From: an uncultured Gammaproteobacteria bacterium
Lineage (GTDB): Bacteria > Patescibacteriota > Patescibacteriia > SG8-24
Direction of reading: 5' to 3'
Length of the DNA: 64,000 nt
Assembly: GCA_964491475.1 (NCBI GenBank)
Contig: CAZBFO010000001.1
Coordinates: forward strand, 8,605 to 72,604
Positions 5,151 through 44,698 of this stretch are shown piece after piece. Every line of letters begins with the position of its first letter. Within the stretch, counting starts at the first letter, position 1. The notes beneath the pieces are model-generated. The model saw only the letters and a list, made by a program, of their open reading frames with translations. It was not told the DNA's origin and made no database searches. The translations under genes and the position numbers were made by a program.

Positions 5151-6236
5151 ATGGGACTTTTTGGAAAGAAAAAGCAGAGCTACCTCGGCATTGACCTCGG
5201 TGCGGGGGGAGTGAAGCTGGTCGAGCTGCAGAACGAGAAGGGGAGAGCGCGGCTCTTCACCTACGCGTTCACCGAGCGCGGCCCCGAACAGCAGCCGATG
5301 TCGCTGGTCGACAACCCGCGCGAGACGGCGGAGCTGCTCCGCAAGATCGTCGCCAAGGCCAAGACCAGCACCAACAAGGTGATCGCCGGCTTGCCGATTG
5401 CCTCGATTTTCAGTTCGGTCATCACCGTGCCGAAGGGCAACGACCGTGAAGTCCGCGAGGCCATCCAGTGGCAGGCCAAGAAGCTGATTCCGGTGCCGCT
5501 CGAGGAAATGGTGCTCGATCCCAAGATCGTCACGGCCGTGCCCGACAAGAACAAGTCGGCCGAAGCGAAGAAGCTCGAAGAGAAGAGCGTGCAGGTGCTC
5601 ATCACCGGCGCGTCCAAGGCGATGGTCAGCAAGTACACCGCCGTCTTCCGCCAGGCCGGCCTCGACCTGTTCAGCTTGGAAACCGAAGCGTTTGCGCTGA
5701 TCCGCGCGCTGATCGGCAAGGACCGCACGGCCACCATGATCGTGGACATCGGTTCCATCCGCACCAACATCATCATCGTCGAGAACGGCATCCCTTACGT
5801 GACGCGCAGCCTCGACATGGGCGGCGTCACGCTCACCAAGGCGATGGCCAAGGCGCTGTCGATGGACCTGAAGGCCGCGGAACAGATGAAGACCGACATC
5901 AAGAGCGTCTCCAGCATCTATCCGGCCGACGGCATTCCTAAGATTTTCGAAGCGGCCGTTGCGCCGATGCTCACCGAGCTGCAGTACTCCATGAACCTTT
6001 ACGCGGGTCAGGGGGCCGAACGCGGCGGCAAGAACATCGAGAAGGTCGTGCTGACCGGAGGCTCTTCGGTCCTGCCGGCCATGGCCACGTTCTTCTCCAA
6101 GCAGCTCAACGTCAAAGTGTATGTCGGCGACCCATGGGCGCGCGTGGTGTATCCGGACGAGCTGCGTCCCGTGCTCGAGGAAATCGGTCCGCGGTTCGCG
6201 GTCGGCGTCGGGTTGGCGATGCGTGACATCGAGTAG
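5151..6236 (+). CDS. pilM: Type IV pilus assembly protein PilM (actin-like ATPase)
   Basis: MGLFGKKKQSYLGIDLGAGGVKLVELQ has the actin/FtsA-like fold signature of PilM. The ORF-track start at 5145 is a TTG, so the ATG at 5151 is preferred. First gene of the pilus cluster. Confidence 0.85.
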   Translation: MGLFGKKKQSYLGIDLGAGGVKLVELQNEKGRARLFTYAFTERGPEQQPMSLVDNPRETAELLRKIVAKAKTSTNKVIAGLPIASIFSSVITVPKGNDREVREAIQWQAKKLIPVPLEEMVLDPKIVTAVPDKNKSAEAKKLEEKSVQVLITGASKAMVSKYTAVFRQAGLDLFSLETEAFALIRALIGKDRTATMIVDIGSIRTNIIIVENGIPYVTRSLDMGGVTLTKAMAKALSMDLKAAEQMKTDIKSVSSIYPADGIPKIFEAAVAPMLTELQYSMNLYAGQGAERGGKNIEKVVLTGGSSVLPAMATFFSKQLNVKVYVGDPWARVVYPDELRPVLEEIGPRFAVGVGLAMRDIE

Positions 6237-6265
6237 CCTAGTCCCAGTCAAGTGAGACCAGCACC

Positions 6266-7216
6266 ATGAGCCTGCTCCAGCCGGAACAACCGAAAACCCC
6301 GAAAGGCGCAGGATCGCCTTCTTCGGCGTCTACGGCCGACATGGGTGCGGCGAAGTCCGCGGTTGCCAGGGCCGAAGCGGCCGCGTCCGGGATGCTTTCG
6401 AGCCTGCGAGTCTCGCTCATGCCGAGCGATCTGGAAGGGCGGCCTGCGCCGAATGTCGCCAGGGGACTGATCGTGTTGGCCGTCGTGCTGCTCGTGGAAA
6501 CCGCCATCATCGGCGTTCTGTACTTCATGACCAGCCGTTCGGTAAACGGCACCATCGCCCGGCGGGACAAGATGATGGCCGATATCCAGACGATCGACAA
6601 GCAGACTTCCGCGCTCGAAGCGGCCTCCATTCCGGCGGTGTCGTATGCCTATCAGGTGCAGGCGGCCAAGGAAACATTGGGCAAACACGTATACTGGACG
6701 CCGTTTTTCGCCCTGCTGGAAAAGAGCGCCCTCCCCGCCGTGAAATTCACGTCGTTCTCGGGTGACGCCACGACGGGGGTCATTACCGTCGACTGCGTCG
6801 CCGGCAATTATCTCGATGCCGCGCAGCAGATCGTCTCGCTGCGGGAATCCCCGATGATTCTCGAGGTGCGCTCCAATTCCGCAGCGGCCAAGGTCAACGA
6901 AAAGGGGGAAATCACCGGCATTTCTTTCAGCATGGTGATCAAGGTCAAACTTGACGCCTGGACTTTGCTGACCGCGCCTTCGTCCATGCCGGACCAGCAA
7001 GCCGCCCCCGCGTCGAATGCCGCTCCGACGGAAGCCGGCGGTCAGGCTCCGGCATTCATCGCCGCACCTGCCACGGAACCGGCCGCAGCGGGAACGTCCG
7101 CGTCCAGCACGCCGTCGCACGGCGCGTCAACAGGCACGAAAGTCCCGTCGTCGTCACCGTTCCCGGGCCCTTCGGTGACTCCGCCCACCCCGCCGCCTTC
7201 GCCGGCAAAGCCTTAA
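6266..7216 (+). CDS. pilN: PilN-like pilus assembly protein (single TM, P/A/S-rich C-terminal tail)
   Basis: Position after pilM. Single TM segment LIVLAVVLLVETAIIGVLYF followed by a periplasmic-type domain. The C-terminal 90 aa are Pro/Ala/Ser-rich low complexity. Confidence 0.6.
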   Translation: MSLLQPEQPKTPKGAGSPSSASTADMGAAKSAVARAEAAASGMLSSLRVSLMPSDLEGRPAPNVARGLIVLAVVLLVETAIIGVLYFMTSRSVNGTIARRDKMMADIQTIDKQTSALEAASIPAVSYAYQVQAAKETLGKHVYWTPFFALLEKSALPAVKFTSFSGDATTGVITVDCVAGNYLDAAQQIVSLRESPMILEVRSNSAAAKVNEKGEITGISFSMVIKVKLDAWTLLTAPSSMPDQQAAPASNAAPTEAGGQAPAFIAAPATEPAAAGTSASSTPSHGASTGTKVPSSSPFPGPSVTPPTPPPSPAKP

Positions 7217-7229
7217 CTGCGCTTTTCCT

Positions 7230-7874
7230 ATGCCGACTCCCGCACGCAAACCGGTCATGGCCGAAACGCTGGCAAAGATGCTTCCCGTCTTTACCGGCCT
7301 TGTCGCTTTCGGTTACGCGATGACTGCCTATGCCTTCCTGTTCATGCCCAAGCTGGGACGCACCGTTTCGGGCGGCGACCTCGACCTCAAGCCGTACCAG
7401 GACCGCATCGCCGAAGCTGCCGCCTACCAGACCCGCCTCAAGACCTTGCAGTCCGATTACGCTTCCGTGAACGCCGAGCGCCGCGCCCGCGTGCAGGAGA
7501 TCGTTCCCGACCGTCTCGATGCCGAAAGCCTGTACGTGCTGCTCGACGGCATCACGCAGGCGCATGGCGGCGTGCTGGGAAACATCGATACTTCGCCGGA
7601 CACCAAGCGCATAGCGGCAAACGGACGCCGCGCCGTGCGCGCGACGGTCAGCATCCGCAACGTCGACTATCAGGGACTTAAGCTGATTCTCACCGATCTG
7701 GAGCGATCGACGCGCGTGATGGACGTCCAGAGCGTCGTGTTCACTCCCGGCAGCAAGACCTACGGCATCGTCTTCCGTGCTTACGCCTTCGATCCGGAGA
7801 GACTCCGCACTGCGCCGTTCGCCGAAGGAGCGAGCGCCGGGGCCGCGGCAGGCGCGCCGGACCAGTCGCAATGA
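7230..7874 (+). CDS. pilO: PilO-like pilus assembly protein
   Basis: N-terminal TM segment LPVFTGLVAFGYAMTAYAFLF followed by a coiled region. Sits at the pilM-pilN-pilO position. Confidence 0.55.
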   Translation: MPTPARKPVMAETLAKMLPVFTGLVAFGYAMTAYAFLFMPKLGRTVSGGDLDLKPYQDRIAEAAAYQTRLKTLQSDYASVNAERRARVQEIVPDRLDAESLYVLLDGITQAHGGVLGNIDTSPDTKRIAANGRRAVRATVSIRNVDYQGLKLILTDLERSTRVMDVQSVVFTPGSKTYGIVFRAYAFDPERLRTAPFAEGASAGAAAGAPDQSQ

Positions 7875-7884
7875 TCGCCTTGCT

Positions 7885-8181
7885 ATGAATAAGCTGAAAG
7901 AAAAACAGCAGATCATCGCGTTGACGGCGCTTCTCGTGCTGATCGGCCTTGTTTTGCTGTATTTCTATCACGACAGGTTTCTGCCGAAACCGGTCGGGAA
8001 TCCGGTAGTGCTGACGCCGCCCCCGCGCCTCCTGCTGCCTTCAAAGTCCGCTGCCGACGCCGCCCTGTACCAGCAACCTGATTTTCAGGCTTTGCGCGAC
8101 CATGCGGGAGTGCCGGTAAAGCCGATGCAGCTCGACGGTTCTGGGAACCCCTTCCTCGAAGATGCCCAGAGCCTTCCCTAA
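7885..8181 (+). CDS. Small single-TM protein (possible PilP-like component)
   Basis: ATG at 7885 (MNKLKEKQQIIALTALLVLIGLVLLYFY). The ORF-track start at 7777 overlaps the pilO 3' end in another frame. Product assignment is by position only. Confidence 0.35.
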   Translation: MNKLKEKQQIIALTALLVLIGLVLLYFYHDRFLPKPVGNPVVLTPPPRLLLPSKSAADAALYQQPDFQALRDHAGVPVKPMQLDGSGNPFLEDAQSLP

Positions 8182-8192
8182 GTACTTCTGCC

Positions 8193-9971
8193 TTGATGCG
8201 GCGGTCACGGCGGCCTGCCGCAATGGTTATGCCAGAAAGCGCAACCGGAAACCCGATGATCGACTTGTTGGTGCAGTCCGGCCGCATCACCGCGGAGCAG
8301 TTTCGCGCCTACGAGGCCGAAGCCGCTGCCGCCGGGAAGCCGGTCGACGTCCTTTTGGTTGAGAAAAAGGTGGTCGACGAGGAGACCATGGCAAAGGCCA
8401 AGGCCGCGCAGCTCGGCCTGTCGTATGTCGATTTACAGGGCAGGGAAATCAAGGCGGAAACGCTGAACCTGATCCCCAAAAACGTCGCCGAAACCAACAA
8501 GGCGGTCCCTTTCGACCGCGACGAGGCGCACGTGAGCATCGGCATCGTCGATCCGCGCGACGCTCGCGCCATGCAGGCCATCGACTTCCTCGCCCAGACC
8601 GTCGGGTTCAGCCCCAAGTACTTCGTGATTTCGACGGCTTCGTTCAACGGCGCGCTCAAGAAGTACGCCACCATCGGCAAGGACGTGGCCGGAGCGCTCG
8701 AGGCGGCCAAAGAGCGCTTCGTCCCCGAAAAGAAGGTGGCGGTATCCGAGGAACGCATCGAGGAGGTCATCAAGGGGGCGCCCGTGTCGCGCATCGTCTC
8801 GGTCATTCTCCGCCACGCCGTCGACGGCGGCGCCTCCGACATTCACATCGAGCCGTTCGGCGAAGAGACTCGCGTCCGCTACCGCGTCGACGGCATGCTC
8901 CGCACCACCCTGACGCTGCCCAAGTACATCCATGCCTCGCTGGTCTCCCGCGTAAAGGTGCTGTCCAACCTCAAGCTGGACGAGACCCGCGTGCCGCAGG
9001 ACGGCCGCATCACCGAGAACTTCAGCGGCAAGGTGATCGACTTCCGCGTTTCCACCATCCCGCTGGCCGAAACCGAAAAGGTGGTGATGCGCATCCTCGA
9101 CACCACCCGCGGCGTGCCGACGCTCGAGCAGCTGGGCTTCCGGCCGCAATTCGTGGAAATCATCAAGCAGGAAGCGCGGAAGCCGCACGGCATCTTCCTC
9201 ATCACCGGTCCGACCGGCTCCGGCAAATCGACCACCTTGCTGACGGTGTTGAGCATGCGCAACGAGGAGGGCGTCAACATTTCCACCCTCGAGGACCCGA
9301 TCGAATACTTCATCAAGGGCGTCAACCAGTCGCAGGTGCGTCCCGAAGTCGGTTACACCTTCGCCAGCGGCCTCCGCGCGATGCTGCGCCAGGACCCGAA
9401 CGTGATCATGGTCGGCGAAATCCGCGACGGCGAGACCGGCGAGCTGGCCATTCACGCCGCGCTCACCGGCCATCTCATCTTCTCGACTCTGCACACTAAC
9501 GACGCCCTGGGCGTGGTGCCTCGCATGGTCGACATGCACGTGGAGCCGTTCCTGCTTTCGGCGACGCTCAACGTGGCCATCGCCCAGCGCCTGGCGCGCA
9601 AGATCTGCGAACGCTGCAAGGCGCCGACGACGCTGCCGCCGGAAATCGAGGAATCAGTCCGGGAGGAAATCGACGCCATCCCGGAAGTCTACAAGACCCA
9701 TCTCGACCTCGCTGCGCCGAAGCTGACGGTCTACAAGGGCATGGGGTGCGTGCGCTGCGGCAATAGCGGCTACATGGGCCGGGTCGCCTGCGCGGAGATG
9801 ATCGTCTACGATGAGGAGCTCCGCCTGCTGATTACCAAGGGTTTTCCCTCGGAGCAGGTCAAGAAAGAGCTGGTCAAGCAGAATGCCATCACCTTGCGCC
9901 AGGACGCTCTCTTGAAGGCTTTGGAGGGTTCAACTACAATTGAGGAAGTCATGCGGATTACCGCCGAATAA
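8193..9971 (+). CDS. pilB: Type IV pilus assembly ATPase PilB (GspE family)
   Basis: N-terminal GSPII_E-N-like domain, Walker A GPTGSGKSTT, Asp/His boxes, and the tetracysteine motif CERC...CVRCGNSGY. The start could be an internal Met (MIDLL...). Confidence 0.9.
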   Translation: MMRRSRRPAAMVMPESATGNPMIDLLVQSGRITAEQFRAYEAEAAAAGKPVDVLLVEKKVVDEETMAKAKAAQLGLSYVDLQGREIKAETLNLIPKNVAETNKAVPFDRDEAHVSIGIVDPRDARAMQAIDFLAQTVGFSPKYFVISTASFNGALKKYATIGKDVAGALEAAKERFVPEKKVAVSEERIEEVIKGAPVSRIVSVILRHAVDGGASDIHIEPFGEETRVRYRVDGMLRTTLTLPKYIHASLVSRVKVLSNLKLDETRVPQDGRITENFSGKVIDFRVSTIPLAETEKVVMRILDTTRGVPTLEQLGFRPQFVEIIKQEARKPHGIFLITGPTGSGKSTTLLTVLSMRNEEGVNISTLEDPIEYFIKGVNQSQVRPEVGYTFASGLRAMLRQDPNVIMVGEIRDGETGELAIHAALTGHLIFSTLHTNDALGVVPRMVDMHVEPFLLSATLNVAIAQRLARKICERCKAPTTLPPEIEESVREEIDAIPEVYKTHLDLAAPKLTVYKGMGCVRCGNSGYMGRVACAEMIVYDEELRLLITKGFPSEQVKKELVKQNAITLRQDALLKALEGSTTIEEVMRITAE

Positions 9972-9992
9972 CGACCTAACCACACGCAGGAT

Positions 9993-10376
9993 ATGGCAGA
10001 TGCCAAGGTCAAAGTGCTTATCGTAGATGACGACGCGTTTCTCTCCGGCATTTACGCGACCAAACTCGAACTGGAGGGATTCGAAGTGGCGTCCGCCCGC
10101 GATGGCGAAGAGGGACTGAAGGCGGCAATGAAGGAGAAGCCCGCGCTGATCCTTTTGGACGTGCTGATGCCCAAACTGGACGGTTTCGAGGTGCTCAAGC
10201 GCCTCAAGGCCGACGCGGAGACGAAAGACATCCCGGTCATCATGCTCACCAATCTCGGTCAGAAGGAAGACATCGAAAAGGGCCTCGCCGACGGCGCCGT
10301 CGACTATCTCATCAAGGCGCATTTCGTGCCCGCCGAAGCCGTCGAGAAGATCAAGAAGGTGCTGAATTTGCCGTAA
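9993..10376 (+). CDS. Single-domain CheY-like response regulator (PilH-like) embedded in pilus operon
   Basis: REC domain with VLIVDDD, phospho-acceptor D in LLDVLMPKLDG, T in MLTNL and K in YLIKA. There is no output domain. Confidence 0.8.
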   Translation: MADAKVKVLIVDDDAFLSGIYATKLELEGFEVASARDGEEGLKAAMKEKPALILLDVLMPKLDGFEVLKRLKADAETKDIPVIMLTNLGQKEDIEKGLADGAVDYLIKAHFVPAEAVEKIKKVLNLP

Positions 10377-10411
10377 CGTCCAAGACAAGAGAAGCGTTTT
10401 TCCCTTCGACC

Positions 10412-11617
10412 ATGCCACGATTTGAATATCACGCGCGGGACCCCAAAGGTCAGGCCGTCGAGGGCTTGGTCGAAGCCGACACCCTGGACATCGCCACCGA
10501 GACCCTTAAAGACAAGGGTCTCTTCGTGCTCTCCATCGATATCCACAAGGAGTCGGTGACCCAGTATGAGATTCCGTGGCTGAACCGCGTCGGTGCCAAG
10601 GATTTGGTGATCTTTTCCCGCCAGTTCTCGGTGCTGATGGGCGCGAAGGTGCCCTTGGTGCAGGCGTTAAGGACCACTGCGCGGCAGACGCAGCATAAGA
10701 GCCTGCAACGGATCATCTTGGACATCGCGTCCGACGTCGAGGCGGGAACCTCGATGTCCGTGGCCATGGCCAAGCACCCGCAGGCCTTCAGCTCGTTCTT
10801 CATCAACATGATCCGTTCGGGCGAGACCACCGGCAAGCTCGAGGAAATCATGAACTACCTGGCAGACCAGATGGAACGCGACTTCGACCTGATGACCAAG
10901 ATCAAGGGCGCGATGACCTACCCCATCTTCGTCATCGTCGCCATGACCGTGGTCGGCTTCGTCATGATGGTGTACGTGGTCCCCAAGCTGACCGCCACCC
11001 TGACCGAGTCGGGCACCGCCTTGCCGTGGACCACGAAAGCGCTGATTGCCGTGAGCGGTTTCATGCAGTCGCACGTGATTCAGATCGTCATCGGCGCGGT
11101 GCTGTTCGCCGCAGCTTTCCGTTGGTGGACTTCCACGCCCGGAGGTCGCGCCTTGTGGGATCGCATCAAATTGCGTGCCCCGGTGTTCGGCCCGCTGCTG
11201 CGCAACATCTACGTCGTGCGCTTCACCCGTTCGATGTCGACGCTGCTGTCCGGCGGCGTGGACGTGCCGCAGAGCCTGGACATCGCCGCGGACATCGTCG
11301 GCAACGAGTACTTCCGGCAGATCATCATGGAAACCCGCAAGGAGGTGTCGGACGGCAATTCGATCACGAGCGTCTTCATGAAGAGCAGCATCATGCCGGT
11401 GATGGTGCCGCAGATGATGTCGGTCGGCGAAGAAACCGGCCGTCTGTCCGAAGTGCTGGAACGCCTGACCGGGTTTTATTCTCGCGAGCTCTCCAACAGC
11501 GTCGCCAACCTGGTATCGGCCATAGAGCCGCTGATCATGCTGGCGATGGGCGGTGCGGTAGGCATCATGGTGTCCGCCATCATGCTGCCCATGTACAACA
11601 TGGCCAGCAACATGTGA
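10412..11617 (+). CDS. pilC: Type IV pilus inner-membrane platform protein PilC (GspF family)
   Basis: Two GspF repeats, three TM segments, and a typical N-terminus (FEYHARDPKGQAVEGLVEADTLDIATETLKDKGLFVLSI). Confidence 0.88.
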   Translation: MPRFEYHARDPKGQAVEGLVEADTLDIATETLKDKGLFVLSIDIHKESVTQYEIPWLNRVGAKDLVIFSRQFSVLMGAKVPLVQALRTTARQTQHKSLQRIILDIASDVEAGTSMSVAMAKHPQAFSSFFINMIRSGETTGKLEEIMNYLADQMERDFDLMTKIKGAMTYPIFVIVAMTVVGFVMMVYVVPKLTATLTESGTALPWTTKALIAVSGFMQSHVIQIVIGAVLFAAAFRWWTSTPGGRALWDRIKLRAPVFGPLLRNIYVVRFTRSMSTLLSGGVDVPQSLDIAADIVGNEYFRQIIMETRKEVSDGNSITSVFMKSSIMPVMVPQMMSVGEETGRLSEVLERLTGFYSRELSNSVANLVSAIEPLIMLAMGGAVGIMVSAIMLPMYNMASNM

Positions 11618-11708
11618 CTTGATTGCCGCCGGGCGCCGAAGAGGCGCCTTTTGCGTGCACGGGCCTGTTGACACGGCGACGGGGCCATGTGGCCTGCGGA
11701 AAAAGGAT

Positions 11709-11717
11709 GTGCTATAC
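11709..11717 (+). promoter_or_regulatory. Putative extended -10 (TGCTATACT) for pilin 1
   Basis: Extended -10 consensus TGnTATAMT. There is a weakly spaced TTGACA at 11668-11673, about 35 nt upstream, which is too far for a standard -35. Confidence 0.35.
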
Positions 11718-11815
11718 TCTGAAGGTCTAATATCATATGTGGATAAGGTTTTGCCCTGTCCGCGGCTTGGTTTCCGACGTTCGTCGGTCACACCTAAGCT
11801 TGTAACGACCAAACT

Positions 11816-12328
<513 letters not shown>

Positions 12329-12406
12329 AGAGAGAGGCGAGATCGGCATGCGCCGGTTGGCCGGAAAAGCGTCCCCAGGGGGACGTTTTTCTTTTGGTGA
12401 AAAATA

Positions 12407-12415
12407 TGCTATGCT
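12407..12415 (+). promoter_or_regulatory. Putative extended -10 (TGCTATGCT) for pilin 2
   Basis: Same motif class, about 31 nt upstream of the ATG at 12447. Confidence 0.3.
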
Positions 12416-12446
12416 GGTACGGTCTTACGGTTTTAAGCAACTCATA

Positions 12447-12962
12447 CAGCCAAACATGCCGCAGTCCACCTCGGTCAACAGCCAAGGCGCAAAACAGGGC
12501 GCATCGCAAAAGGGTTTCACGCTCATCGAGCTGCTCGTGGTCATCGCCATCGTCGGCCTGCTATCGGTCATCGCCATGGTCGGAATGACCGTCGCCCGTT
12601 CCAAGTCGCGCGACACCAAGCGCGTCGCCGACATTCGGCAAATTCAAAAGGGCCTGGAACTCTTCTATACGGACAATTTGGGCTATCCGACGGTGTCTTC
12701 GGCTGCCGTTCTGGGTCAGGGGACGGCACTTTCGCTCTGCGGTACCGCCTTGAGCGCGACGTGCAGCGGCACGGCCTATATTTCTCGGCTGCCGACGGCA
12801 CCAGACGTCGCCGAAAGCGGCTGCAGCGCCTCGACCTACAGCTACGTCTCGAGCGCCACTGCCGGAACCAGCAGCTCGTATTCGATCGTCTTCTGCCTGG
12901 GGAACAAGGTCGGGGAGCTGAACGCCGGCCTTCGCACGGCGACGCCTAGCGGCATTCAGTAG
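12447..12962 (+). CDS. Type IV major pilin paralog 2
   Basis: MPQSTSVNSQGAKQGASQKG|FTLIELLVVIAIVGLL. The ORF-track entry at 11895 is an artefactual upstream extension overlapping pilin 1 in another frame. Confidence 0.85.
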   Translation, partial: QPNMPQSTSVNSQGAKQGASQKGFTLIELLVVIAIVGLLSVIAMVGMTVARSKSRDTKRVADIRQIQKGLELFYTDNLGYPTVSSAAVLGQGTALSLCGTALSATCSGTAYISRLPTAPDVAESGCSASTYSYVSSATAGTSSSYSIVFCLGNKVGELNAGLRTATPSGIQ

Positions 12963-12967
12963 AAACG

Positions 12968-12976
12968 TGCTACAAT
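12968..12976 (+). promoter_or_regulatory. Putative extended -10 (TGCTACAAT) for pilin 3
   Basis: Lies only 8 nt before the ATG at 12984. This suggests either a leaderless transcript or use of the downstream ATG at 13023. Confidence 0.3.
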
Positions 12977-12983
12977 CCGAGCG

Positions 12984-13493
12984 ATGATTCGTAAGTCGGG
13001 TGTCCGCCCGTTCCGTAGACGTATGCGCCAGCACAACAAGAAGGGTTTCACGCTCGTCGAACTGCTCGTAGTGATTGGCATCATTGCCGTGTTGACGTCC
13101 ATCGCGGTTATCGCACTGGGGAGCGCCCGCAGGAAGGCGCGCGATGCAAAGCGTGTCGCGGACGTGAAGGCCATACAGAACGCGCTGGAACTCTACTATC
13201 AGGAATCGAACGGCTATCCTACGGAGTCGCCGGCAGTCGAACTGGGCCAGGGAAGTTACAAGGCCCTGTGCTCTACCGGCTTTGAGACCACCTGCGGCGG
13301 CACGGCCACCGAGTTCATGGGGCTGGTTCCGACGGCGCCTCTGCCGATGGATGGCGGCTGCTCGGCGGGTCAGAACCGCTACATGTATGCGGCTTCTGCC
13401 GGAGGCGCCTACGACATCACTTTCTGCTTGGGCGACAATTTCGGAGATTATCTGGGCGGCATGCGCACAGCGACCGAGGACGGCATCAATTAG
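12984..13493 (+). CDS. Type IV major pilin paralog 3
   Basis: ...MRQHNKKG|FTLVELLVVIGIIAVL. An alternative start at 13023 (MRQHNKKGF) gives a more typical short leader peptide. Confidence 0.85.
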   Translation: MIRKSGVRPFRRRMRQHNKKGFTLVELLVVIGIIAVLTSIAVIALGSARRKARDAKRVADVKAIQNALELYYQESNGYPTESPAVELGQGSYKALCSTGFETTCGGTATEFMGLVPTAPLPMDGGCSAGQNRYMYAASAGGAYDITFCLGDNFGDYLGGMRTATEDGIN

Positions 13494-13502
13494 CGGGAAA
13501 GA

Positions 13503-13529
13503 AAAAGGGCCCGAGGGCCCTTTTTCTGC
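13503..13529 (+). terminator. Rho-independent terminator after pilin array
   Basis: AAAAAGGGCCCGAGGGCCCTTTTTCT: a perfect GC hairpin followed by a T-run. Confidence 0.6.
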
Positions 13530-13615
13530 TCTTCGGACGGGATGGACAGCATCTGCCATTCGGCTTTCACCCGTGCTATCATTCAGGCAGGAATACCCAC
13601 ATTGACGCGCAAGGA

Positions 13616-14434
13616 ATGCCTGCCTGGTTTGCGGCAAATGACGGTTACGGCCTGACGCCGCTGCTCACGGCGTTCGTTTTCACGTTCGGCGCCATCATCG
13701 GCAGCTTCCTGAATGCGCTGCTGTGGCGGTTGCGGACGGGCGAGAGCATCGTCAGGGGGCGCTCGTACTGCCCCTGCTGTCACCATTCGTTGGCGGCGCG
13801 CGACTTGGTGCCGATTTTCAGCTTTCTGCTTTTGGGCGGGAAATGCCGCTACTGCCGGAAGGGGATTCATCCCTCGTACGTCATGGTCGAGCTGGCCGTC
13901 GGCATCCTGTTCACGCTTTTCGCCCGCAAGGCATTTGCCGCGGGCATGACGAGCACCGATGTCATGTTGGCCGGCCTGCTGCGTGACTGGTACGCGGCGG
14001 CGGTCCTGACGGCGGTGTTCGTGTTCGACCTCCGTTACATGATCATCCCGCGATCAGTGACGTTCCCGGCGAGCGTCATATTGGCGACTGCCGCCGTGCT
14101 GTTGGGCGCGAGCCTGACCAGCGTGGCACTGGGGCTGCTGGTTGGCGCAGGTTTCTTCAAGGTGCAGCACGTCGCGTCGCGCGGCCGCTGGATCGGCGGC
14201 GGCGACATCCACTTGGGAGCGCTCATGGGCGTGCTGCTGGGGTGGCCGCAGATTCTGGTGGCGCTTTTCCTGGCCTACGTCACGGGCGCGGCGGCAGGCG
14301 TGGCCATGCTGGCAGGAAAGCGCGTCGCCTGGAAGGGGCAGCTGCCGTTCGGCACTTTCCTTTCTGCCGCAACCGTCGTGACGATGCTTTGGGGCGACCG
14401 CCTGCTGCAGTGGTACCTGCACATCACCTTCTGA
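13616..14434 (+). CDS. pilD: Prepilin peptidase PilD (A24 family)
   Basis: N-terminal Zn-binding tetracysteine CPCCHHSL...CRYCRKGI. Multi-TM. Has the IGSFLNALLWRL motif typical of PilD/GspO. Confidence 0.88.
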   Translation: MPAWFAANDGYGLTPLLTAFVFTFGAIIGSFLNALLWRLRTGESIVRGRSYCPCCHHSLAARDLVPIFSFLLLGGKCRYCRKGIHPSYVMVELAVGILFTLFARKAFAAGMTSTDVMLAGLLRDWYAAAVLTAVFVFDLRYMIIPRSVTFPASVILATAAVLLGASLTSVALGLLVGAGFFKVQHVASRGRWIGGGDIHLGALMGVLLGWPQILVALFLAYVTGAAAGVAMLAGKRVAWKGQLPFGTFLSAATVVTMLWGDRLLQWYLHITF

Positions 14435-14438
14435 ACCT

Positions 14439-15080
14439 ATGCGAGCGAGATTGCACTCACTGCCGCAGGTGCGGCGCGCGGCGGCGTTCACGCTCGTCGA
14501 GCTTTTGATTTCCATCGCCATCATCTCGGTCATGACAGGCTACGTCGCGGCCAATTACCGCACGGCCCGGCAAAGCGACGAGTTGCGGCAGGGGGCGTCG
14601 CTTCTGGCCAGCAGCGTCCGTCGCGTGCAGACCATGGCTCTGGCCGGCGAGGGCGTGCTGACCTGTTCCGGCGGAGGCACCGTCAAGACCTGTACCAAGG
14701 ATGCCGACTGCAACGGCGGCGGCACCTGCGTGCGCAGCCTGCCGCACGGCTACGGAGTCCACTTGAGCACTGCCACTGCCGCTGCCAGCAGGCAGACCGT
14801 GATTTTTGCCGACCTGAACGGCGATCGGGCCTACCAGGCGGGCGAGGAAATCCGCACCGACAGCATATCCGCCGGCCCGTTCGTCGGCCTGACGTCGCTG
14901 GCGCCCATGACCGCCACGAAGTTCCTCGACATCGTGCTGGAGCCGCCGAAACCGACGGTGTGGTTCAACGCCTCCAACGCCCTGTCGGTATCGACCGTCG
15001 TGCTGACGCATTCGGCCACCGGCAAGACCCGATCGGTGACGATAAACCGCATCACCGGACAGGTGAGCGCGGACTACTGA
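14439..15080 (+). CDS. Minor pilin, GspH/FimT-like
   Basis: Prepilin-type N-terminus RRAAA|FTLVELLISIAIISVMTGY. Begins 5 nt after the pilD stop. Confidence 0.7.
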   Translation: MRARLHSLPQVRRAAAFTLVELLISIAIISVMTGYVAANYRTARQSDELRQGASLLASSVRRVQTMALAGEGVLTCSGGGTVKTCTKDADCNGGGTCVRSLPHGYGVHLSTATAAASRQTVIFADLNGDRAYQAGEEIRTDSISAGPFVGLTSLAPMTATKFLDIVLEPPKPTVWFNASNALSVSTVVLTHSATGKTRSVTINRITGQVSADY

Positions 15081-15088
15081 CCGCAGGT

Positions 15089-15745
15089 ATGCGCAAAGCG
15101 CCTTCCTCACGCAGGGGCCAAAGCATGATAGAAGTCATCATCGCTTCCGGCATCATCATGACGGCAGCTTCGGCTGCCCTGACGCTGGTGTCGTCTTCGA
15201 TCAACGCTGAAAAGAACAGCGAGGCGCAGATCGCCGCAGGCAACCTGGCGCGCGAGGGCATCGAGGCGGTGCGGTCCATCCGCGACACCAACTGGCTCAA
15301 GGGGCAGGCCTTCGATACCGGACTGACAGGCTCCGTGGCGCGGGACTATACCGGCGTGCCCGTTTTCGATCCCGCCGTCGGCACCTGGAGCTTCGATTTC
15401 TATCCCAACAACATCACCAATTTCATGGCGCGGGTGTACCGCTACGTCACGGGCGTCGGCAATGCCGTCGTCGGCCTGATGATTCAGGGCGAGCCGCGGG
15501 GCAGCGGCGTGACGCCGACAGGCGTCGTGCCGACGGGCGCGGTGGTCAGCCCTTACCGCCGGTTCATGGAGCTCGACCCGATGTGCGACAACGGCGCCGG
15601 CGGCTACACCATCGCCGTGCAGTGGACCAGCGACTGCGGCGTCAACAAGAAGATCGGCCTGCGCGTCATCTCGACCGTGCAATGGAAGGTGGCCGGCGCG
15701 ACCAGGAACCTGTCCGTCGAGGAACGGCTTTTTGACTGGCGCTGA
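15089..15745 (+). CDS. Minor pilin, PilV-like
   Basis: ATG at 15089 (MRKAPSSRRGQ|SMIEVIIASGIIMTAASA) with E at +5. The ORF-track start at 14960 overlaps the previous gene. Confidence 0.65.
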   Translation: MRKAPSSRRGQSMIEVIIASGIIMTAASAALTLVSSSINAEKNSEAQIAAGNLAREGIEAVRSIRDTNWLKGQAFDTGLTGSVARDYTGVPVFDPAVGTWSFDFYPNNITNFMARVYRYVTGVGNAVVGLMIQGEPRGSGVTPTGVVPTGAVVSPYRRFMELDPMCDNGAGGYTIAVQWTSDCGVNKKIGLRVISTVQWKVAGATRNLSVEERLFDWR

Positions 15746-15748
15746 CCT

Positions 15749-16378
15749 ATGCTGCACATCCGCGCACACCGCCGCACGACCGCTCCGTCCAAGGGCTTCA
15801 CGCTCATGGAGCTTTTGGTCGTAATGTCGCTGTTCACCACCGTCGTGCTGATCGCCTCGGACATCTTCCTGTTGAGCAACCGCGCTTCGCGCAAGGTGTT
15901 CGGCCTGGAGCGCACGCAGGCCGACGCCCGCTACACCATGGAGGCGATCACCCGCGAGATTCGCACCGGCGTCCTCGACTACGCCTACTATGCCGGCCGC
16001 GGTTCGGCCATCGGCACGCCAGAGCCCGAATTGGCGCTGATCGAGAGCGACAACACGCCCATCAAGTTCAAGGTCAGCGACTCCGCGAACGCCGGCCTGT
16101 GCGCCGATGCCAACAGTTCGCCCTGCCTTCTGGTGACCGTAGGCGCGGCTTCGCCCGCAGCGGTCACTCCCAAGAACGTGGCGGTGATTTCGGCGAAGTT
16201 CTACATCTCGCCGGACGTAGACCCGACCGTGTTCAATACCGCCACGGGCGCATATAATTCGGACATCCAGCCGCACGTGACGGCGGTGCTGGTGCTCCAA
16301 AGCAAGGGCGGCGCGGCGGCGGAACAGTCGGTCATTTACCTGCAGACGACGGCCACCAACCGTTCGTACCGTCGCTAG
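15749..16378 (+). CDS. Minor pilin, PilW-like
   Basis: TAPSKG|FTLMELLVVMSLFTTVVL prepilin N-terminus. Confidence 0.7.
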   Translation: MLHIRAHRRTTAPSKGFTLMELLVVMSLFTTVVLIASDIFLLSNRASRKVFGLERTQADARYTMEAITREIRTGVLDYAYYAGRGSAIGTPEPELALIESDNTPIKFKVSDSANAGLCADANSSPCLLVTVGAASPAAVTPKNVAVISAKFYISPDVDPTVFNTATGAYNSDIQPHVTAVLVLQSKGGAAAEQSVIYLQTTATNRSYRR

Positions 16379-16380
16379 CT

Positions 16381-17193
16381 ATGCACACTCATCTCCACAA
16401 TCCGAGAGGCGCGCGGCAGCGCGGCACGGTGCTGCTGATGGCCTTGATCATCATGTCCGGCGTGGTCATCTCCTCGATGGGCGTCGGTTCGCTGATCGTC
16501 AGCTCTCTGCAGCAGTCCCGGTCGCTGGACAACGGCATCACCGCCTATTACGCGGCCGAGTCCGGCGTCGAGGACGGGCTGTACGCGGTGCGCCATCAGG
16601 ACACTTTGCCGGCATCGGTGACGACGGCAAGGACGCTGGGCAACAACGCGACCTGGACCCGCACCGTGACCAGCAGCGAGTCGGTGGTGTACGCCGGCAC
16701 CATCAGCCAGGACGCGGTCTACGAAATCGCCCTGTACGATCCGGAAGCGTCCACGACTTCGCTGAACATCGGCAGCCTGCAGGTTACCTGGAGCGATTCG
16801 TGCAGCGGATGCAGCGTGGTGCAGACCTCGCTGGTCGGCTGGAAGTCCGGCGGTCCGGTGCTGTGGGATCCGAACGCCACCGTCAACCTTTACACCTGGA
16901 GCGGCAGCGGCGTGGCCATCGCGGTCCCCGACACCACCAAGCTGTACCGATTCCGCATGACGGCCAAGAACGCCGACATGCAGAACGTGCAGATACGGGC
17001 GCTCGACACGGGCGGTGCGCCCACGAACGTCCCCGGACGCGTGCGCATCGACGGCCTCGGCACCTTCAACCAGAACACCCAGAAACTGACCGCCACCCTG
17101 CCTCGCGGCGTGCCCCTTTCCGGCATCTTCGACTTCGTGGTGTTCAGCGAGTGCTCGCTGGTGAAGGGGGGCGCGAGCGGGTCATGCCCGTAA
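16381..17193 (+). CDS. PilX-like pilus assembly protein
   Basis: The N-terminus QRGTVLLMALIIMSGVVISSMGVGSL...AYYAAESG matches the PilX N-terminal domain pattern. Last gene of the pilus block. Confidence 0.6.
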   Translation: MHTHLHNPRGARQRGTVLLMALIIMSGVVISSMGVGSLIVSSLQQSRSLDNGITAYYAAESGVEDGLYAVRHQDTLPASVTTARTLGNNATWTRTVTSSESVVYAGTISQDAVYEIALYDPEASTTSLNIGSLQVTWSDSCSGCSVVQTSLVGWKSGGPVLWDPNATVNLYTWSGSGVAIAVPDTTKLYRFRMTAKNADMQNVQIRALDTGGAPTNVPGRVRIDGLGTFNQNTQKLTATLPRGVPLSGIFDFVVFSECSLVKGGASGSCP

Positions 17194-17227: not shown

Positions 17228-19306
17228 ATGACCATCACGGAAGCGAAAGCGCGCATTGCCGCACTCAAGAAGGAAATCGACCGCCAGCGCTACCTGTATC
17301 ACGTCGAGGACCGTTCGGAGATGTCCGACGCGGCGCTCGATTCGCTCAAGCACGAACTGTATCGGCTGGAGCAGGAATTTCCGTCGCTGATCACGCCGGA
17401 CTCCCCGACGCAGCGCGTCGGCGGCAAGGCGCTGGCAAAGTTCGAGAAAGTCACCCACGCCGCCCCCATGCTCTCCATGGAGGACGTTTTCGCGCCCGAG
17501 GAATTCGACGAGTGGCACGCGCGCGTCGCCAAGCTGCTCGGACGGGAGAAGTTCGACCTGTTCTGCATGGTCAAGGTGGACGGGTTGGCCACCAGCATAA
17601 ATTACGACGACTCCGCCCTGGCGTTCGCGGCGACGCGCGGCGACGGCAGGGTGGGAGAGAACATCACCGAGAACGTCAAGACCATCGAGGCGGTGCCGTT
17701 GGCGCTGCGGGAACCGACGGAGCGCGAGATCGACGCGTTCTGCGCCAAGCACCGCGGCGGCATCGACGAGAAGAAGGTCCGCAGGGCGCTGGAGCGGCGC
17801 AACGGCCGCATCGAGGTGCGCGGCGAAGTCTACATGACGCAGAAGGCCTTCGATGCCCTCAACGCCGAGCAGAAGCGTAGGGGCGAAGAGGCCTACGCTA
17901 ATCCCCGCAATCTCGCCGCAGGAGCAGTGCGCCAGCTTGACCCCAAGATCACCGCCAGCCGCAAGCTGTCGTTCTTCGCCTGGGACCTGGTGACCGACCT
18001 CGGGCAGCGCAGGCATTCGCAGGAGTGGGAGCTGCTGCGGCTTTTCGGCTTCAACGCCAACCGCGAGAGCGTGCTGGCGCACTCGGTGGGCGACGTGCAC
18101 GCCTTTTGGAAGCGGACCCAGGAGCGACGCGCCGAGCTGGGCTATTGGATCGACGGCAGCGTGATACGCGTAGACGACAACGACGCCTACGAACGGCTGG
18201 GCGTCGTCGGCAAGACGCCGCGGGCGATGGTCGCCTGGAAGTTCCCGGCAGAGGAAGTCACCACGGTGGTGGAAGGCGTCTCCTGGCAAGTGGGCCGCAC
18301 CGGCGCGTTGACGCCGGTGGCGCACCTGAAGCCGGTGTGGCTGGGCGGCACTACGGTCAAGAACGCCACGCTGCACAACGCCGACGAGATCAAGCGGTTG
18401 GACCTGAAGATCGGCGACACCGTGGTGCTGTTCAAGGCCGGCGACATCATTCCCAAGGTGAAGGAGGTCATCAAGGCGCTGCGGCCGAAGGGCGCCAAGG
18501 CGGTGCCGTTGCCGCGCGTCTGTCCGGCTTGCGGCGAGCGCGTCGCGCGGCGCGAGGGCGAGGTGGCCATCGTCTGCGACAACCGCGGCTGTCCCGCCAA
18601 GCATGTCGAGTTCATGGCCAACTTCGTTTCCAGGCGCGCCTTCGACATCGACGGTCTGGGCTACAAGGTGGTCGAGCAGCTGATGGACGGCGGCCTGCTG
18701 TCGCGGCCGTCAGACCTGTTCCGGCTCAAGAAGGAGGACTTGATCGACTTGGAACGGTTCGGCGAGAAGTCGGCCGAGAACCTGATCGCCGCCATTCATG
18801 CGCGGCGGCAGGTGTCGCTGCCGCGGTTCATCATCGCGCTCGGCATCACCCATGTGGGCGACGAGACCGCCGTTGATCTGGCGCAGCACTTCGGCACCCT
18901 GGAGAAGCTCCGTCATGCCGCCAAAGAGCAGCTGGAAGCCGTGAACGGCATCGGCGACGTCGTCGCGGAGTCGGTGTTGAAGTGGTTCGCCGACAAGAAG
19001 CATCAGGCCATGGTCGACGACCTGCTGGAGGCGGGCGTGAAGCCGGAGCGCACGGTCAAGCCGGCCAGCGCGCCCTGGCAGGGGATGACCATGGTGTTCA
19101 CCGGCGCGATGGAAGCGATGACCCGCGACGAGGCCAAGGACAAGGCGCGGGCGATGGGGGCGACGGTCAGCGAATCAGTCTCCAAGAAGACCACCTACGT
19201 CATCGCCGGACCCGAGGCGGGTTCCAAGCTGGAGAAGGCCAAAAAACTGGGCGTGACCGTCTTGAACGAAGCGGAGTTCCTCGCTATGCTGGGCAAGAAG
19301 TCCTAA
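17228..19306 (+). CDS. ligA: NAD-dependent DNA ligase LigA
   Basis: Adenylation-site region KVDGLA. Zn finger CPACGERVARREGEVAIVCDNRGCPAK. HhH repeats. C-terminal BRCT (WQGMTMVFTG...VIAGPEAGSKLEKAKKLGV). Confidence 0.92.
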   Translation: MTITEAKARIAALKKEIDRQRYLYHVEDRSEMSDAALDSLKHELYRLEQEFPSLITPDSPTQRVGGKALAKFEKVTHAAPMLSMEDVFAPEEFDEWHARVAKLLGREKFDLFCMVKVDGLATSINYDDSALAFAATRGDGRVGENITENVKTIEAVPLALREPTEREIDAFCAKHRGGIDEKKVRRALERRNGRIEVRGEVYMTQKAFDALNAEQKRRGEEAYANPRNLAAGAVRQLDPKITASRKLSFFAWDLVTDLGQRRHSQEWELLRLFGFNANRESVLAHSVGDVHAFWKRTQERRAELGYWIDGSVIRVDDNDAYERLGVVGKTPRAMVAWKFPAEEVTTVVEGVSWQVGRTGALTPVAHLKPVWLGGTTVKNATLHNADEIKRLDLKIGDTVVLFKAGDIIPKVKEVIKALRPKGAKAVPLPRVCPACGERVARREGEVAIVCDNRGCPAKHVEFMANFVSRRAFDIDGLGYKVVEQLMDGGLLSRPSDLFRLKKEDLIDLERFGEKSAENLIAAIHARRQVSLPRFIIALGITHVGDETAVDLAQHFGTLEKLRHAAKEQLEAVNGIGDVVAESVLKWFADKKHQAMVDDLLEAGVKPERTVKPASAPWQGMTMVFTGAMEAMTRDEAKDKARAMGATVSESVSKKTTYVIAGPEAGSKLEKAKKLGVTVLNEAEFLAMLGKKS

Positions 19307-19314
19307 CGTTTCCT

Positions 19315-19608
19315 ATGAAGCTCACCCCCGAACAGGTTGAAAAGATCGCCACGCTGTCGCGGCTGTCGGTATCCGAAGAAGAACGCGAGACGTTCAGCAG
19401 GCAGCTGTCCTCGATTTTGGAATGGGTCGACATGATGTCCAAGGTGGATACCGAAGGCGTCGCGCCGATGCAGCACGCCGCGCAGCTCGTCAACGTCTTC
19501 GGCACCGACGTCCCCGCGCCGACCGACGCCGAGACGCGCGCCCGCCTGCTGTCGCAGTTCCCCGAGCGCGAAGGCGACTTGCTCAAGGTGAAAGCCGTGT
19601 TCTCGTAA
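19315..19608 (+). CDS. gatC: Asp/Glu-tRNA(Asn/Gln) amidotransferase subunit C
   Basis: MKLTPEQVEKIATLSRLSVSEEERETFSRQLSSILEWVDMMSKVDTEGV is a typical GatC. The ATG at 19315 lies 6 nt after the ligA stop. The ORF-track start at 18982 is an out-of-context extension. Confidence 0.8.
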   Translation: MKLTPEQVEKIATLSRLSVSEEERETFSRQLSSILEWVDMMSKVDTEGVAPMQHAAQLVNVFGTDVPAPTDAETRARLLSQFPEREGDLLKVKAVFS

Positions 19609-19611
19609 GCT

Positions 19612-21087
19612 ATGGATTTGTCACGCGCATCCCTCAAGGAAGTCATGGACGGACTGGCCAAGGGCGCGTTCAGCTCACGCGAAGTGACTGACGCCTGCCT
19701 TGCCGTCGCCGCCAAGAACGCCGGCACCACCCACGCCTACGTCTCGCTGCTCGACGACGCCGCCCGCAAGGCCGCCGACGAGTCCGACGCGCGCCGCTCC
19801 GTCGGCGCCGCCAAGTCGCCGTTCGACGGCGTGCCCGTGGCGGTGAAGGACAACATGCTGCTGGTCGGTTCCAAGACCACCGCCGGATCCGAAATCATCC
19901 GCAACTACGAATCTCCCTATGACGCCACGGTGGTCGCCCGTTTGCGCGCGGCAGGCGCCGTGTTCCTGGGCAAGCTGAACCTTGACGAGTTCGCCATGGG
20001 CGGCTCGACCGAGACCTCCTGCCACGGACTGACGCGCAACCCCTGGGACTTGAGCAAGATCGCCGGCGGCTCTTCCGGCGGCAGCGCCGTGTCCGTGGCC
20101 GAAGGTTCGGCGACGGTCTCGCTCGGCTCCGACACGGGCGGCTCCATCCGCCAGCCGGCGGCCATGTGCGGCGTGGTCGGCCTCAAGCCCACCTACGGCC
20201 GTGTCTCGCGCTACGGGCTGATGGCCATGGCATCGAGCCTCGATCAGATCGGACCGCTTGCCCGCACCGTCGAGGATGCCTCGTTGCTGCTGGGGGCCAT
20301 CGAAGGGCGCGACATGATGGACTCGACCAGCGTCGATCTGAAAGAGGACTGGGCGCTGCCGAAGTCTTTCGACGCGGGTTCATCGCAGCCGCTCAAGGGC
20401 ATGCGCATCGGCATGCCGAACGAGTACTTCGTCTCGGGCATGGATACGGAAGTGAACGCCGCAGTGCGCGGCGCCATCAAGACGTTGGAAGGCCTCGGCG
20501 CGGAGATCAAGGAAGTGTCGTTGCCGCACTCCGAATACGCTCTGGCCGTCTACTACGTGCTGATGCCCTCGGAGGTGAGCGCCAACCTGTCGCGCTACGA
20601 CGGCATCCGCTACGGCGTGCGCAAGGCGGGGGAGACGCTGGAGCAGACCTATCGTCAGTCGCGCGGCCAGGGTTTCGGCAAGGAAGTGCGCCGCCGCATC
20701 ATGCTGGGCACCTACGCGCTCTCCTCTGGCTACTACGACGCCTACTACCTCAAGGCGCTGAAGGTCCGCCGGCTGATCGCTGACGATTTCAGGGCGGCCT
20801 TCAAGGACGTGGACGTCATCGTCACGCCGACGTCGCCCGTGCCGGCCTGGAACATCGGCGAACGCACCGACGATCCGCTGTCGATGTACCTGGCGGACAT
20901 CTACACGGTCGGCGTCAACGTCGCCGGGCTGCCCGGCATCAGCGTGCCCTGCGGATTCGCCAAGGGTTTGCCGGTAGGCCTGCAGCTGATCGGCGATCAT
21001 TTCCGCGAAAAGACGATTCTCTTCGCGGCGCACGCCTACGAGACCGCCGCCGGACTCAAAGACAAGCTGCGACCTCCGCAAGCATAA
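19612..21087 (+). CDS. gatA: Glutamyl-tRNA(Gln) amidotransferase subunit A (amidase signature family)
   Basis: Amidase signature GGSSGGSAVSVAEGSATVSLGSDTGGSIRQPAAMCGVVGLKPTYGRVSRYG with the Ser-cisSer-Lys triad context. Starts 4 nt after gatC. Confidence 0.9.
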   Translation: MDLSRASLKEVMDGLAKGAFSSREVTDACLAVAAKNAGTTHAYVSLLDDAARKAADESDARRSVGAAKSPFDGVPVAVKDNMLLVGSKTTAGSEIIRNYESPYDATVVARLRAAGAVFLGKLNLDEFAMGGSTETSCHGLTRNPWDLSKIAGGSSGGSAVSVAEGSATVSLGSDTGGSIRQPAAMCGVVGLKPTYGRVSRYGLMAMASSLDQIGPLARTVEDASLLLGAIEGRDMMDSTSVDLKEDWALPKSFDAGSSQPLKGMRIGMPNEYFVSGMDTEVNAAVRGAIKTLEGLGAEIKEVSLPHSEYALAVYYVLMPSEVSANLSRYDGIRYGVRKAGETLEQTYRQSRGQGFGKEVRRRIMLGTYALSSGYYDAYYLKALKVRRLIADDFRAAFKDVDVIVTPTSPVPAWNIGERTDDPLSMYLADIYTVGVNVAGLPGISVPCGFAKGLPVGLQLIGDHFREKTILFAAHAYETAAGLKDKLRPPQA

Positions 21088-31115: not shown

Positions 31116-31315
31116 ATGGTCATGAAATTTAGTGTTCGTAAACTCCTCCATCGTACACCGCGTTTGCCCCTGCCGCAACGGCCGGTCACGCCACGGAGTG
31201 CGCCCGCGCACGCAAAAACAAAACGTCCCGTTGAGGACGTTTCGTCACGGCGACAAGGCCCTACCGCCGTCCCGCGTGCCCAAAGGCATCGGAGTCGAAC
31301 GGTAAGAAGCTGTCG

Positions 31316-44582: not shown

Positions 44583-44622
44583 AGGCGCTAGCCCCCCGAC
44601 GTACGTCGGGGGGCCTTTTTTG
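44583..44622 (+). terminator. Rho-independent terminator after guaA
   Basis: GCCCCCCGACGTACGTCGGGGGGC + TTTTTT. Confidence 0.6.
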
Positions 44623-44640
44623 TGGCCCGCTGTCTTAATC

Positions 44641-44668
44641 TTGCATATTTTTAGAAGATTGCTACACT
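44641..44668 (+). promoter_or_regulatory. Sigma70-like promoter (TTGCAT-16nt-TGCTACACT) for the intron-containing tRNA
   Basis: -35 TTGCAT at 44641-44646. Extended -10 TGCTACACT at 44660-44668. About 24 nt upstream of the mature tRNA 5' end. Confidence 0.45.
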
Positions 44669-44698
44669 GTGGACACCTCAAATCAGAGAGGCCCATAT

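Follow-up and report, generated by a model that had tools for sequence, protein, structure and literature searches.

Within the 64 kb window analysed here (the whole stretch of 64,000 nt, from contig CAZBFO010000001.1), positions 5151-17193 hold a type IV pilus cluster of 15 co-directional genes on the plus strand, or 16 if a conserved upstream gene is counted. Its genes code, in order, for PilM, a PilN-like and a PilO-like protein, a small bitopic protein, PilB, a receiver domain (REC) that stands alone, PilC, three pilins in tandem, PilD, and four minor subunits that resemble pilins. It is very probably a chromosomal type IVa-like pilus operon of an Uhrbacteria-related bacterium of the Patescibacteria (Candidate Phyla Radiation, CPR) that has no outer membrane and has lost pilT. 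The fibre is most likely static, or retracts slowly or independently of PilT, because no PilT is encoded in the operon and PilT has decayed in related lineages.

The position that pilT would occupy was identified by comparing orthologous operons. Metagenomes were scanned with the REC protein, and the 80 loci obtained were then searched by tblastn with the window proteins and a PilT query. The order PilM-...-PilB-REC-PilT-PilC-pilin-PilD-minor pilins, with or without LigA at the end, was found in 15 complete operons, and REC followed by PilT was also present in six contig fragments. The order PilB-REC-PilC, without pilT, was found in the window, in six metagenomic loci, and in four genome loci; the REC gene and pilC of the window lie only 35 nt apart. 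To confirm PilT identity, four of the PilT genes were checked against NCBIfam, and three of them scored 422-442 bits on TIGR01420 (cutoff of 319 bits). The remaining gene, from locus L038, scored 279 bits.

In a neighbour-joining tree of PilC rooted with Geobacter, the pilT-less loci and L038 formed a clade with 100% bootstrap support. The L038 gene (L038:5059-6126) occupies the pilT position of its operon and encodes a degenerate PilT-like protein. Its family is conserved, with a length of about 357 amino acids (proteins P0135-P0206, labelled Komeilibacteria and Patescibacteria), and in these proteins Arg mostly stands in for the Walker A Lys, most members have lost the Walker B Glu, and Asp or Asn takes the place of the His-box His. 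The family is probably a pseudo-ATPase kept for a structural or regulatory role. As the pilT slot is fixed in the orthologues, empty in the clade of the window, and filled by a degenerate form in L038, the absence of pilT from the window is, judged from these gene orders, due to its loss in this lineage from an otherwise constant site in the operon, the one separating the REC gene from pilC. A comparison of the locus order with CPR pilus loci had been proposed in the original prediction; the closest syntenic loci are Patescibacteria contigs, and pilT is absent exactly at the junction of the REC gene and pilC.

The same cluster could instead encode a normal retractile pilus whose pilT has moved elsewhere in the genome, in which case its lack in the operon would be functionally meaningless. 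Pilus machinery genes including pilT were reported to be well conserved in most Patescibacteria classes (PMC12206443), and the part of the genome examined here is the 64 kb window out of a source contig of 402,943 bp, so that pilT may sit at another site. These points count against the favoured reading, and further ones have to be set beside them. Gene content and order, motifs, synteny, and the loss of pilT from its slot were observed directly; the type of envelope, the target of REC, and what the fibre does and how it moves are inferred. The tree was built by neighbour joining on a single protein, neither the PilN-like protein nor the small fourth protein is backed by a match to a sequence family, and the taxonomy rests on the labels of contigs from metagenome-assembled genomes, two of which (Vicinamibacterales and Acutalibacteraceae) conflict with the others. 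Against relocation, the position of pilT is fixed in the 15 orthologous operons while the whole clade lacks pilT there, and in the PilT-like protein of one clade member the Walker A Lys, the Walker B Glu, and the His-box His are all replaced. As weak further evidence, the 120 best homologues of this protein include none on a contig of 402,943 bp. The degenerate protein and the clade-wide absence together suggest relaxed selection on retraction rather than relocation, which we regard as possible but rather improbable.

The original prediction that the cluster encodes neither pilT nor a secretin was confirmed and extends to the window. A tblastn search with PilB across the 64 kb returned one other T2SSE-type ATPase (61772-62986) and no PilT, and Pfam scans of the other large open reading frames (ORFs) returned housekeeping and surface proteins, with no secretin domain and no PilT. 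These scans took in the larger ORFs, leaving out the smaller ones and a paralogue of an S8 subtilase at 58045-59487.

The ATPase at 61772-62986 was considered as the missing PilT and rejected, as it scored 473 bits on GspE vs 167 bits on pilT_fam and carries extension-type CxxC pairs. It belongs to a second type IV filament locus (61772-64000, plus strand) that is cut by the window end, where the gene for this GspE/PilB-type ATPase of 404 amino acids is followed by a GspF/PilC-like platform gene, with an overlap of 8 nt between the two. Across many Parcubacteria, members of this ATPase family share about 62% identity, and the family was found in Nomurabacteria, Kaiserbacteria, Vogelbacteria, and Paceibacterota. 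In relatives (L012-L014), pilin-like genes and genes for very large surface proteins (SpaA_2, VWA, CARDB) follow, and the locus has neither PilM/N/O nor PilT.

The coordinates of the pilus genes and of the conserved upstream gene are given in Table 1. The cluster starts with the ATG of pilM at 5151 and ends with the stop codon of the last minor pilin at 17193. Its genes had been described as separated by tiny gaps, and this held: the intergenic gaps are 2-62 nt, except for gaps of 198, 127, and 122 nt around the pilin genes. The G+C content of the window is about 63%, and third-codon-position G+C is near 0.87 in real genes. In a promoter and terminator scan, sites were no more numerous than in shuffled sequence. 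When the components were checked with hidden Markov models (HMMs), PilM, PilB, REC, PilC, PilD, and the pilin N-termini passed.

Table 1. Pilus genes of the window and the conserved gene upstream of them
Feature	Position	Strand	Basis and remarks
Secreted acidic double-disulfide-repeat protein, 1406 amino acids	868..5088	+	NF033662 203 bits, 8 repeats; directly upstream of pilM
PilM, cytoplasmic actin-like alignment-complex protein	5151..6236	+	PF11104 5e-37; TIGR01175 151.7 bits
PilN-like bitopic protein	6266..7216	+	Predicted fold, conserved motif, gene position
PilO-like bitopic protein	7257..7874	+	Profile match to M. xanthus PilO; alternative start 7230
Small bitopic protein, 98 amino acids	7885..8181	+	One N-terminal membrane helix; position labelled "P-like" in the original prediction
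PilB extension ATPase	8229..9971	+	T2SSE 393 bits and MshEN domain; start uncertain (8193, 8229, or 8256)
REC, stand-alone CheY-like receiver domain, 127 amino acids	9993..10376	+	PF00072 7e-25
PilC platform protein	10412..11617	+	T2SSF (PF00482) 200 bits, two stretches
Pilin 1	11816..12328	+	N_methyl 6.7e-9; 8-residue leader, G|FTLIE
Pilin 2	12456..12962	+	N_methyl 1.1e-8; 55% identical to pilin 1
Pilin 3	12984..13493	+	N_methyl 1.5e-8; 55% identical to pilin 1
PilD prepilin peptidase / N-methyltransferase	13616..14434	+	A24_N_bact 1.1e-27; Peptidase_A24 4.4e-13
Minor pilin 1 (GspH/FimU-like position)	14439..15080	+	N_methyl 1.9e-6; A|FTLVE
Minor pilin 2 (PilV-like position)	15089..15745	+	G|QSMIE; N_methyl 0.0063, under cutoff
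Minor pilin 3	15749..16378	+	N_methyl 3e-6; G|FTLME
Minor pilin-like protein 4 (PilX/GspK-like tip-subunit position)	16381..17193	+	N-terminal hydrophobic helix, G|TVLLM

The motor ATPase of the operon is of the extension type. PilB scored 507 bits on TIGR02538 (equivalog cutoff of 676) vs 175 bits on pilT_fam, and its motifs are intact, comprising Walker A (GPTGSGKST), the Asp box (LEDPIE), Walker B (IMVGEIRD), the His box (TLHTN), and two CxxC pairs (CERC and CVRC). PilC has three hydrophobic regions and scored 368 bits on NF052607 and 344 bits on GspF, both under the equivalog cutoffs.

The REC gene was found between pilB and pilT or pilC in all syntenic loci, and across 23 operons the acidic pair, the phospho-acceptor Asp, and the Thr/Ser and Lys positions of its product are conserved, as is a signature motif, [ST]N[LI]GQ(K/R)(E/D)(D/Q)(I/V). 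By these sequence comparisons, REC is a conserved member of this operon type, and it probably gates the pilus motor. PilG and PilH of the Pil-Chp system are CheY-like single-domain regulators of pilus motors. They share with REC of the window the stand-alone receiver architecture, the phospho-acceptor residues, and the genetic tie to pilus motor genes; however, the Pil-Chp genes form a separate cluster, whereas the REC gene lies inside the structural operon without chemosensory or kinase genes nearby. No family-specific HMM places REC in PilG or PilH, and none of the other large ORFs that were scanned with Pfam in the window encodes a histidine kinase. A response regulator in a CPR pilus operon is not mentioned in three reports on such pili (PMC12206443, PMC9894109, and PMC6744442), and a targeted text search gave no relevant match.

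Related REC proteins were also found in another recurrent context (L022, L026, L028, L029, L041, L042, L047, L058, and L061). In these loci, there are mostly two tandem REC genes (one in L022), and a PilB-like ATPase is encoded on the opposite strand 2.6-7.4 kb upstream.

The alignment-complex proteins differ in how well their names are supported. PilM exceeds the TIGR01175 cutoff of 133 bits, and a gene call of 361 amino acids in the Logan contig L011 agrees with the PilM call. For the following two genes, the original labels of PilN and PilO stood to different degrees. The PilO label gained a profile match: a profile of five orthologues matched M. xanthus PilO (3jc8_O) with an E value of 1.5e-6 over residues 30-191 of 209. 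The protein had no match in the Pfam scan and a weak match to GspM (NF040576 at 1.5e-4, 21.5 bits vs the 60-bit cutoff). From the profile match, we accept the product as PilO.

The PilN label stands by fold, motif, and position, with no sequence-family match. The PilN-like protein consists of a cytoplasmic LRVSLMP motif, one membrane helix (residues 60-91), a coiled coil, a ferredoxin-like domain, and a Pro/Ala/Ser-rich tail, and sequence and profile searches of Pfam, NCBIfam, and PDB returned no match. The motif, LRVSLxP, is invariant in 4-6 orthologues and lies just before the membrane helix, an arrangement that we take to be that of the PilM-binding motif of PilN. An AlphaFold2 model (pLDDT of 71.8) comprised a long helix followed by a beta-beta-alpha-beta-beta domain. 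In a Foldseek search of PDB with this model, the best matches were the periplasmic domains of EpsL, XcpY, and PulL (GspL; E values of 1e-4 to 9e-4), followed by PilO and then T. thermophilus PilN (4bhq). A profile alignment of the PilN-like with the PilO-like protein by hhalign gave a probability of only 2.7%, and the core of the PilN-like protein had only four homologues among 5.8 billion proteins; this protein evolves too fast for family-level inference. The product can be read as PilN by its predicted fold and gene position, together with the LRVSLxP motif.

The label "P-like" for the small bitopic protein gained no support: the protein had no match in Pfam or NCBIfam, no lipobox or other lipoprotein signal, and no similarity to PilP. 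The gene is kept in four loci, and a third small bitopic gene occurs at the same place, before pilB, in distant CPR operons.

All three pilins of the window carry G|FTL(I/V)E at the leader junction. Pilin 1 and the single pilin encoded in L004, L006, and L007 share 64-74% identity and a conserved Cys pair; by this identity, pilin 1 is the orthologue of the single major pilin of the relatives. Relatives have one pilin gene at the position where the window has three (11816-13493), and by the same comparison pilins 2 and 3 are lineage-specific paralogues, so that the major pilin has been triplicated. The G+C content is slightly lower across the three-pilin stretch (0.59-0.61). PilD contains the CPCC and CRYC Cys pairs of the methyltransferase domain and the Asp motifs FDLR and GGGD.

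The four genes after pilD are pilin-like, as had been proposed, and the specific names given to them (GspH, PilV, PilW, and PilX-like) rest on gene order and on sub-threshold N-terminal matches. Minor pilin 1 scored 28.8 bits on GspH (cutoff of 80 bits), with the match limited to the N-terminus, and minor pilin 2 scored 19 bits on PilV (TIGR02523, cutoff of 52 bits) and has orthologues in L004, L006, and L007. HMM and PDB profile searches gave no specific family match for minor pilin 3 and no match for minor pilin-like protein 4, which has no Glu at +5 and has orthologues in L004 and L006. In PDB searches with the minor-pilin profiles, the matches were confined to the N-terminal helix shared by pilins. 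The number and order of the minor pilins and the missing Glu5 of the last one fit the series GspH/FimU-PilV-PilW-PilX, with family matches that are sub-threshold and N-terminal only.

Several of these scores would also fit a type II secretion system (T2SS)-like pseudopilus that exports proteins across the wall, such as the adjacent large repeat protein, instead of forming a long fibre. The pilins score best on GspG (52, 44, and 44 bits, below the cutoff), PilB and PilC score almost as well on GspE and GspF as on the models for PilB and PilC, and the PilO-like protein matches GspM weakly; a missing retraction ATPase is typical of T2SS, and the large secreted protein is a conserved neighbour. 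However, every Gsp score lies below its cutoff (GspE 501 vs 630, GspF 344 vs 424, GspG 52 vs 89, and GspM 21.5 vs 60 bits). There is no GspD, GspC, or fused GspL, and PilM, encoded as a protein of its own, scores above the cutoff of its model. In the orthologous operons there is a PilT, a protein not known from T2SS, and pili have been seen on CPR cells (PMC7906910). We therefore consider a pseudopilus very unlikely.

A DNA-uptake (competence) pilus that supplies DNA or nucleotides to a cell incapable of synthesising them was also weighed. In this direction point the enrichment of CPR genomes in pilus and competence families, between which a link has been proposed (PMC6744442), the position of ligA directly downstream in nearly all orthologous operons, and recAX in locus 2 of TM7x (PMC12206443). 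Pfam scans of the window ORFs, however, revealed no ComEC, ComEA, or DprA domain, and the scores on ComGA (229 vs 300 bits), ComGB (131 vs 240 bits), and ComGC (33 vs 75 bits) were all under the cutoffs. Com systems have no PilM/N/O, whereas the window has PilM and PilO. In the systems that have been studied, efficient DNA uptake requires pilus retraction, for which the ATPase is missing here. Competence is thus an unlikely main function of the locus.

For the favoured pilus without PilT-driven retraction, the gene set would suffice to assemble a type IVa-like fibre across an envelope lacking an outer membrane, with steps that follow established knowledge of the families. PilD would cut the leader after Gly or Ala at -1 and methylate the residue at +1 in each of the three pilins and in minor pilins 1-3. 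In the cytoplasm, PilM would dock onto the LRVSLMP motif of PilN, and PilN, PilO, and the small third bitopic protein would form a membrane alignment complex around the PilC platform. Hexameric PilB, using ATP, would extract pilins from the membrane and add them to a priming complex made up of the four minor pilins, with the last minor pilin, which lacks Glu5, at the pilus tip. A secretin would be unnecessary in such an envelope. REC would act as a phosphorylation-competent motor regulator, with its kinase presumably encoded outside the window, and the fibre would be an adhesive pilus that makes contact with host cells or surfaces, not an organelle for twitching.

A bolder version of this model, which we put forward as speculation, is that the whole Uhrbacteria-like clade gave up PilT-driven retraction. 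A related lineage, with one member nested inside the pilT-less clade of the PilC tree, would have retained a conserved PilT-like protein without catalytic activity in the pilT slot, and the lineage of the window would have dropped the gene. REC beside PilB would then be the sole motor switch, controlling the assembly of a static fibre for adhesion or else switching PilB from extension to disassembly and back, in the manner of the bifunctional Tad-type ATPase.

The original description of the cluster as a monoderm-style pilus without a secretin is supported and matches the published CPR pattern, and hence is not new. CPR genomes have co-localised genes for PilB, PilT, PilC, PilM, PilN, PilO, and PilD without PilQ, with an envelope that is not Gram-negative (Meheust et al. 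2019, PMC6744442). These operons and that of the window have in common the co-localised PilM, PilN (PilN-like in the window), PilO, PilB, PilC, PilD, and pilins, the lack of PilQ, and a presumed envelope without an outer membrane; they differ in that the published operons list PilT. That report is silent on the embedded REC gene, the small fourth gene for a bitopic protein, and the repeat protein encoded upstream. What the window adds is modest, namely the clade-wide loss of pilT from its operon slot, the conserved REC, the pilin triplication, and the conserved repeat-protein neighbour. Compared with the type IVa pilus of diderms (M. xanthus and P. aeruginosa, 3jc8), the window shares an alignment complex of PilM, a PilN-like protein, and PilO, as well as PilB, PilC, PilD, a major pilin, and a set of four pilin-like minor subunits, but it has no PilQ secretin, PilP lipoprotein, TsaP, or PilT/PilU.

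Saccharibacteria have two pilus systems, one without a retraction ATPase (PMC12206443; PMC9894109). In Nanosynbacter lyticus TM7x, the pilus of locus 2 is encoded without a retraction ATPase and mediates binding to the host, not motility (PMC12206443), and by analogy this locus would be the closest precedent for a non-retracting adhesive pilus. Like the window, the small genome of TM7x encodes two distinct filament machineries, and some minor pilins of TM7x lack a PilD site (PMC12206443). The correspondence is incomplete: in its content of pilD and a minor-pilin set, the pilus locus of the window resembles locus 1 of TM7x, which carries pilT; the second system of the window has no PilM/N/O in relatives, unlike locus 2 of TM7x; and the organism of the window is Parcubacteria-like, whereas TM7x belongs to Saccharibacteria. 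Pili connecting ultrasmall cells to their hosts have been observed in groundwater by cryo-transmission electron microscopy (PMC7906910).

Pili are regarded as the principal means by which ultrasmall CPR bacteria locate, hold on to, and exploit their hosts. This locus leaves unchanged what is generally known of secretin-less pili in envelopes that lack an outer membrane. The same operon with an intact, a degenerate, or no PilT represents a natural experiment, and this series could be used to probe the need for retraction in an episymbiotic lifestyle and the role of the conserved, undiscussed receiver protein.

A scan of species-representative genomes with PilB identified five loci (L003-L007) with the same order, from the upstream repeat protein through ligA and gatA. 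The PilB identities of syntenic loci were 85% for "bacterium nzgw371", 83% for "Patescibacteria group bacterium", and 65% for Ca. Uhrbacteria. L006 is labelled Ca. Uhrbacteria and L007 Patescibacteria. L004 (JBAIXY010000122.1) and L005 (JBAIWZ010000035.1) bear the labels Vicinamibacterales and Acutalibacteraceae, respectively, while both are fully syntenic with 65-70% identity in PilB and PilC; they are probably mis-binned or mislabelled. Rfam and tRNA scans of the window detected no rRNA and only a tRNA-Ser. From the labels of the syntenic contigs and the family of the second ATPase, rather than from a phylogeny, we infer that the window belongs to the Parcubacteria part of the Patescibacteria and is related to Ca. 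Uhrbacteria.

The protein encoded directly upstream of pilM has an N-terminal hydrophobic signal-like segment and repeats of the motif CxDGxDNDxDGxxDCxDxxC, and it had no match in the Pfam scan. Its orthologue lies immediately 5' of pilM in L003, L004, L005, and L006, and weak matches were found in L019 and L020. A role in the pilus is suggested by this synteny only. A partial ORF at the window start (2-856, plus strand) contains the same NF033662-type repeats.

On the other side of the cluster (17228-21087, plus strand), the minor pilin genes are followed by ligA, and often gatA, in close relatives. The same holds for many distant pilT-bearing CPR operons (L032, L038, L060, L066, L085, and L090), and the linkage of the pilus genes with ligA is therefore old.

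Elsewhere in the window, positions 44600-46800 form a low-G+C island (0.53-0.54 vs 0.63 in the flanks) whose ORFs are without the host-like high third-position G+C and which was probably acquired horizontally; it encodes a Fic/DOC-domain protein (46141-46731) with the motif HPFREGNGRT. Two closely similar secreted S8 subtilases with I9 propeptides are encoded at 29757-31211 (minus strand; the copy included in the Pfam scans) and 58045-59487 (plus strand); around the catalytic Asp and His, long stretches of the two proteins are nearly identical.

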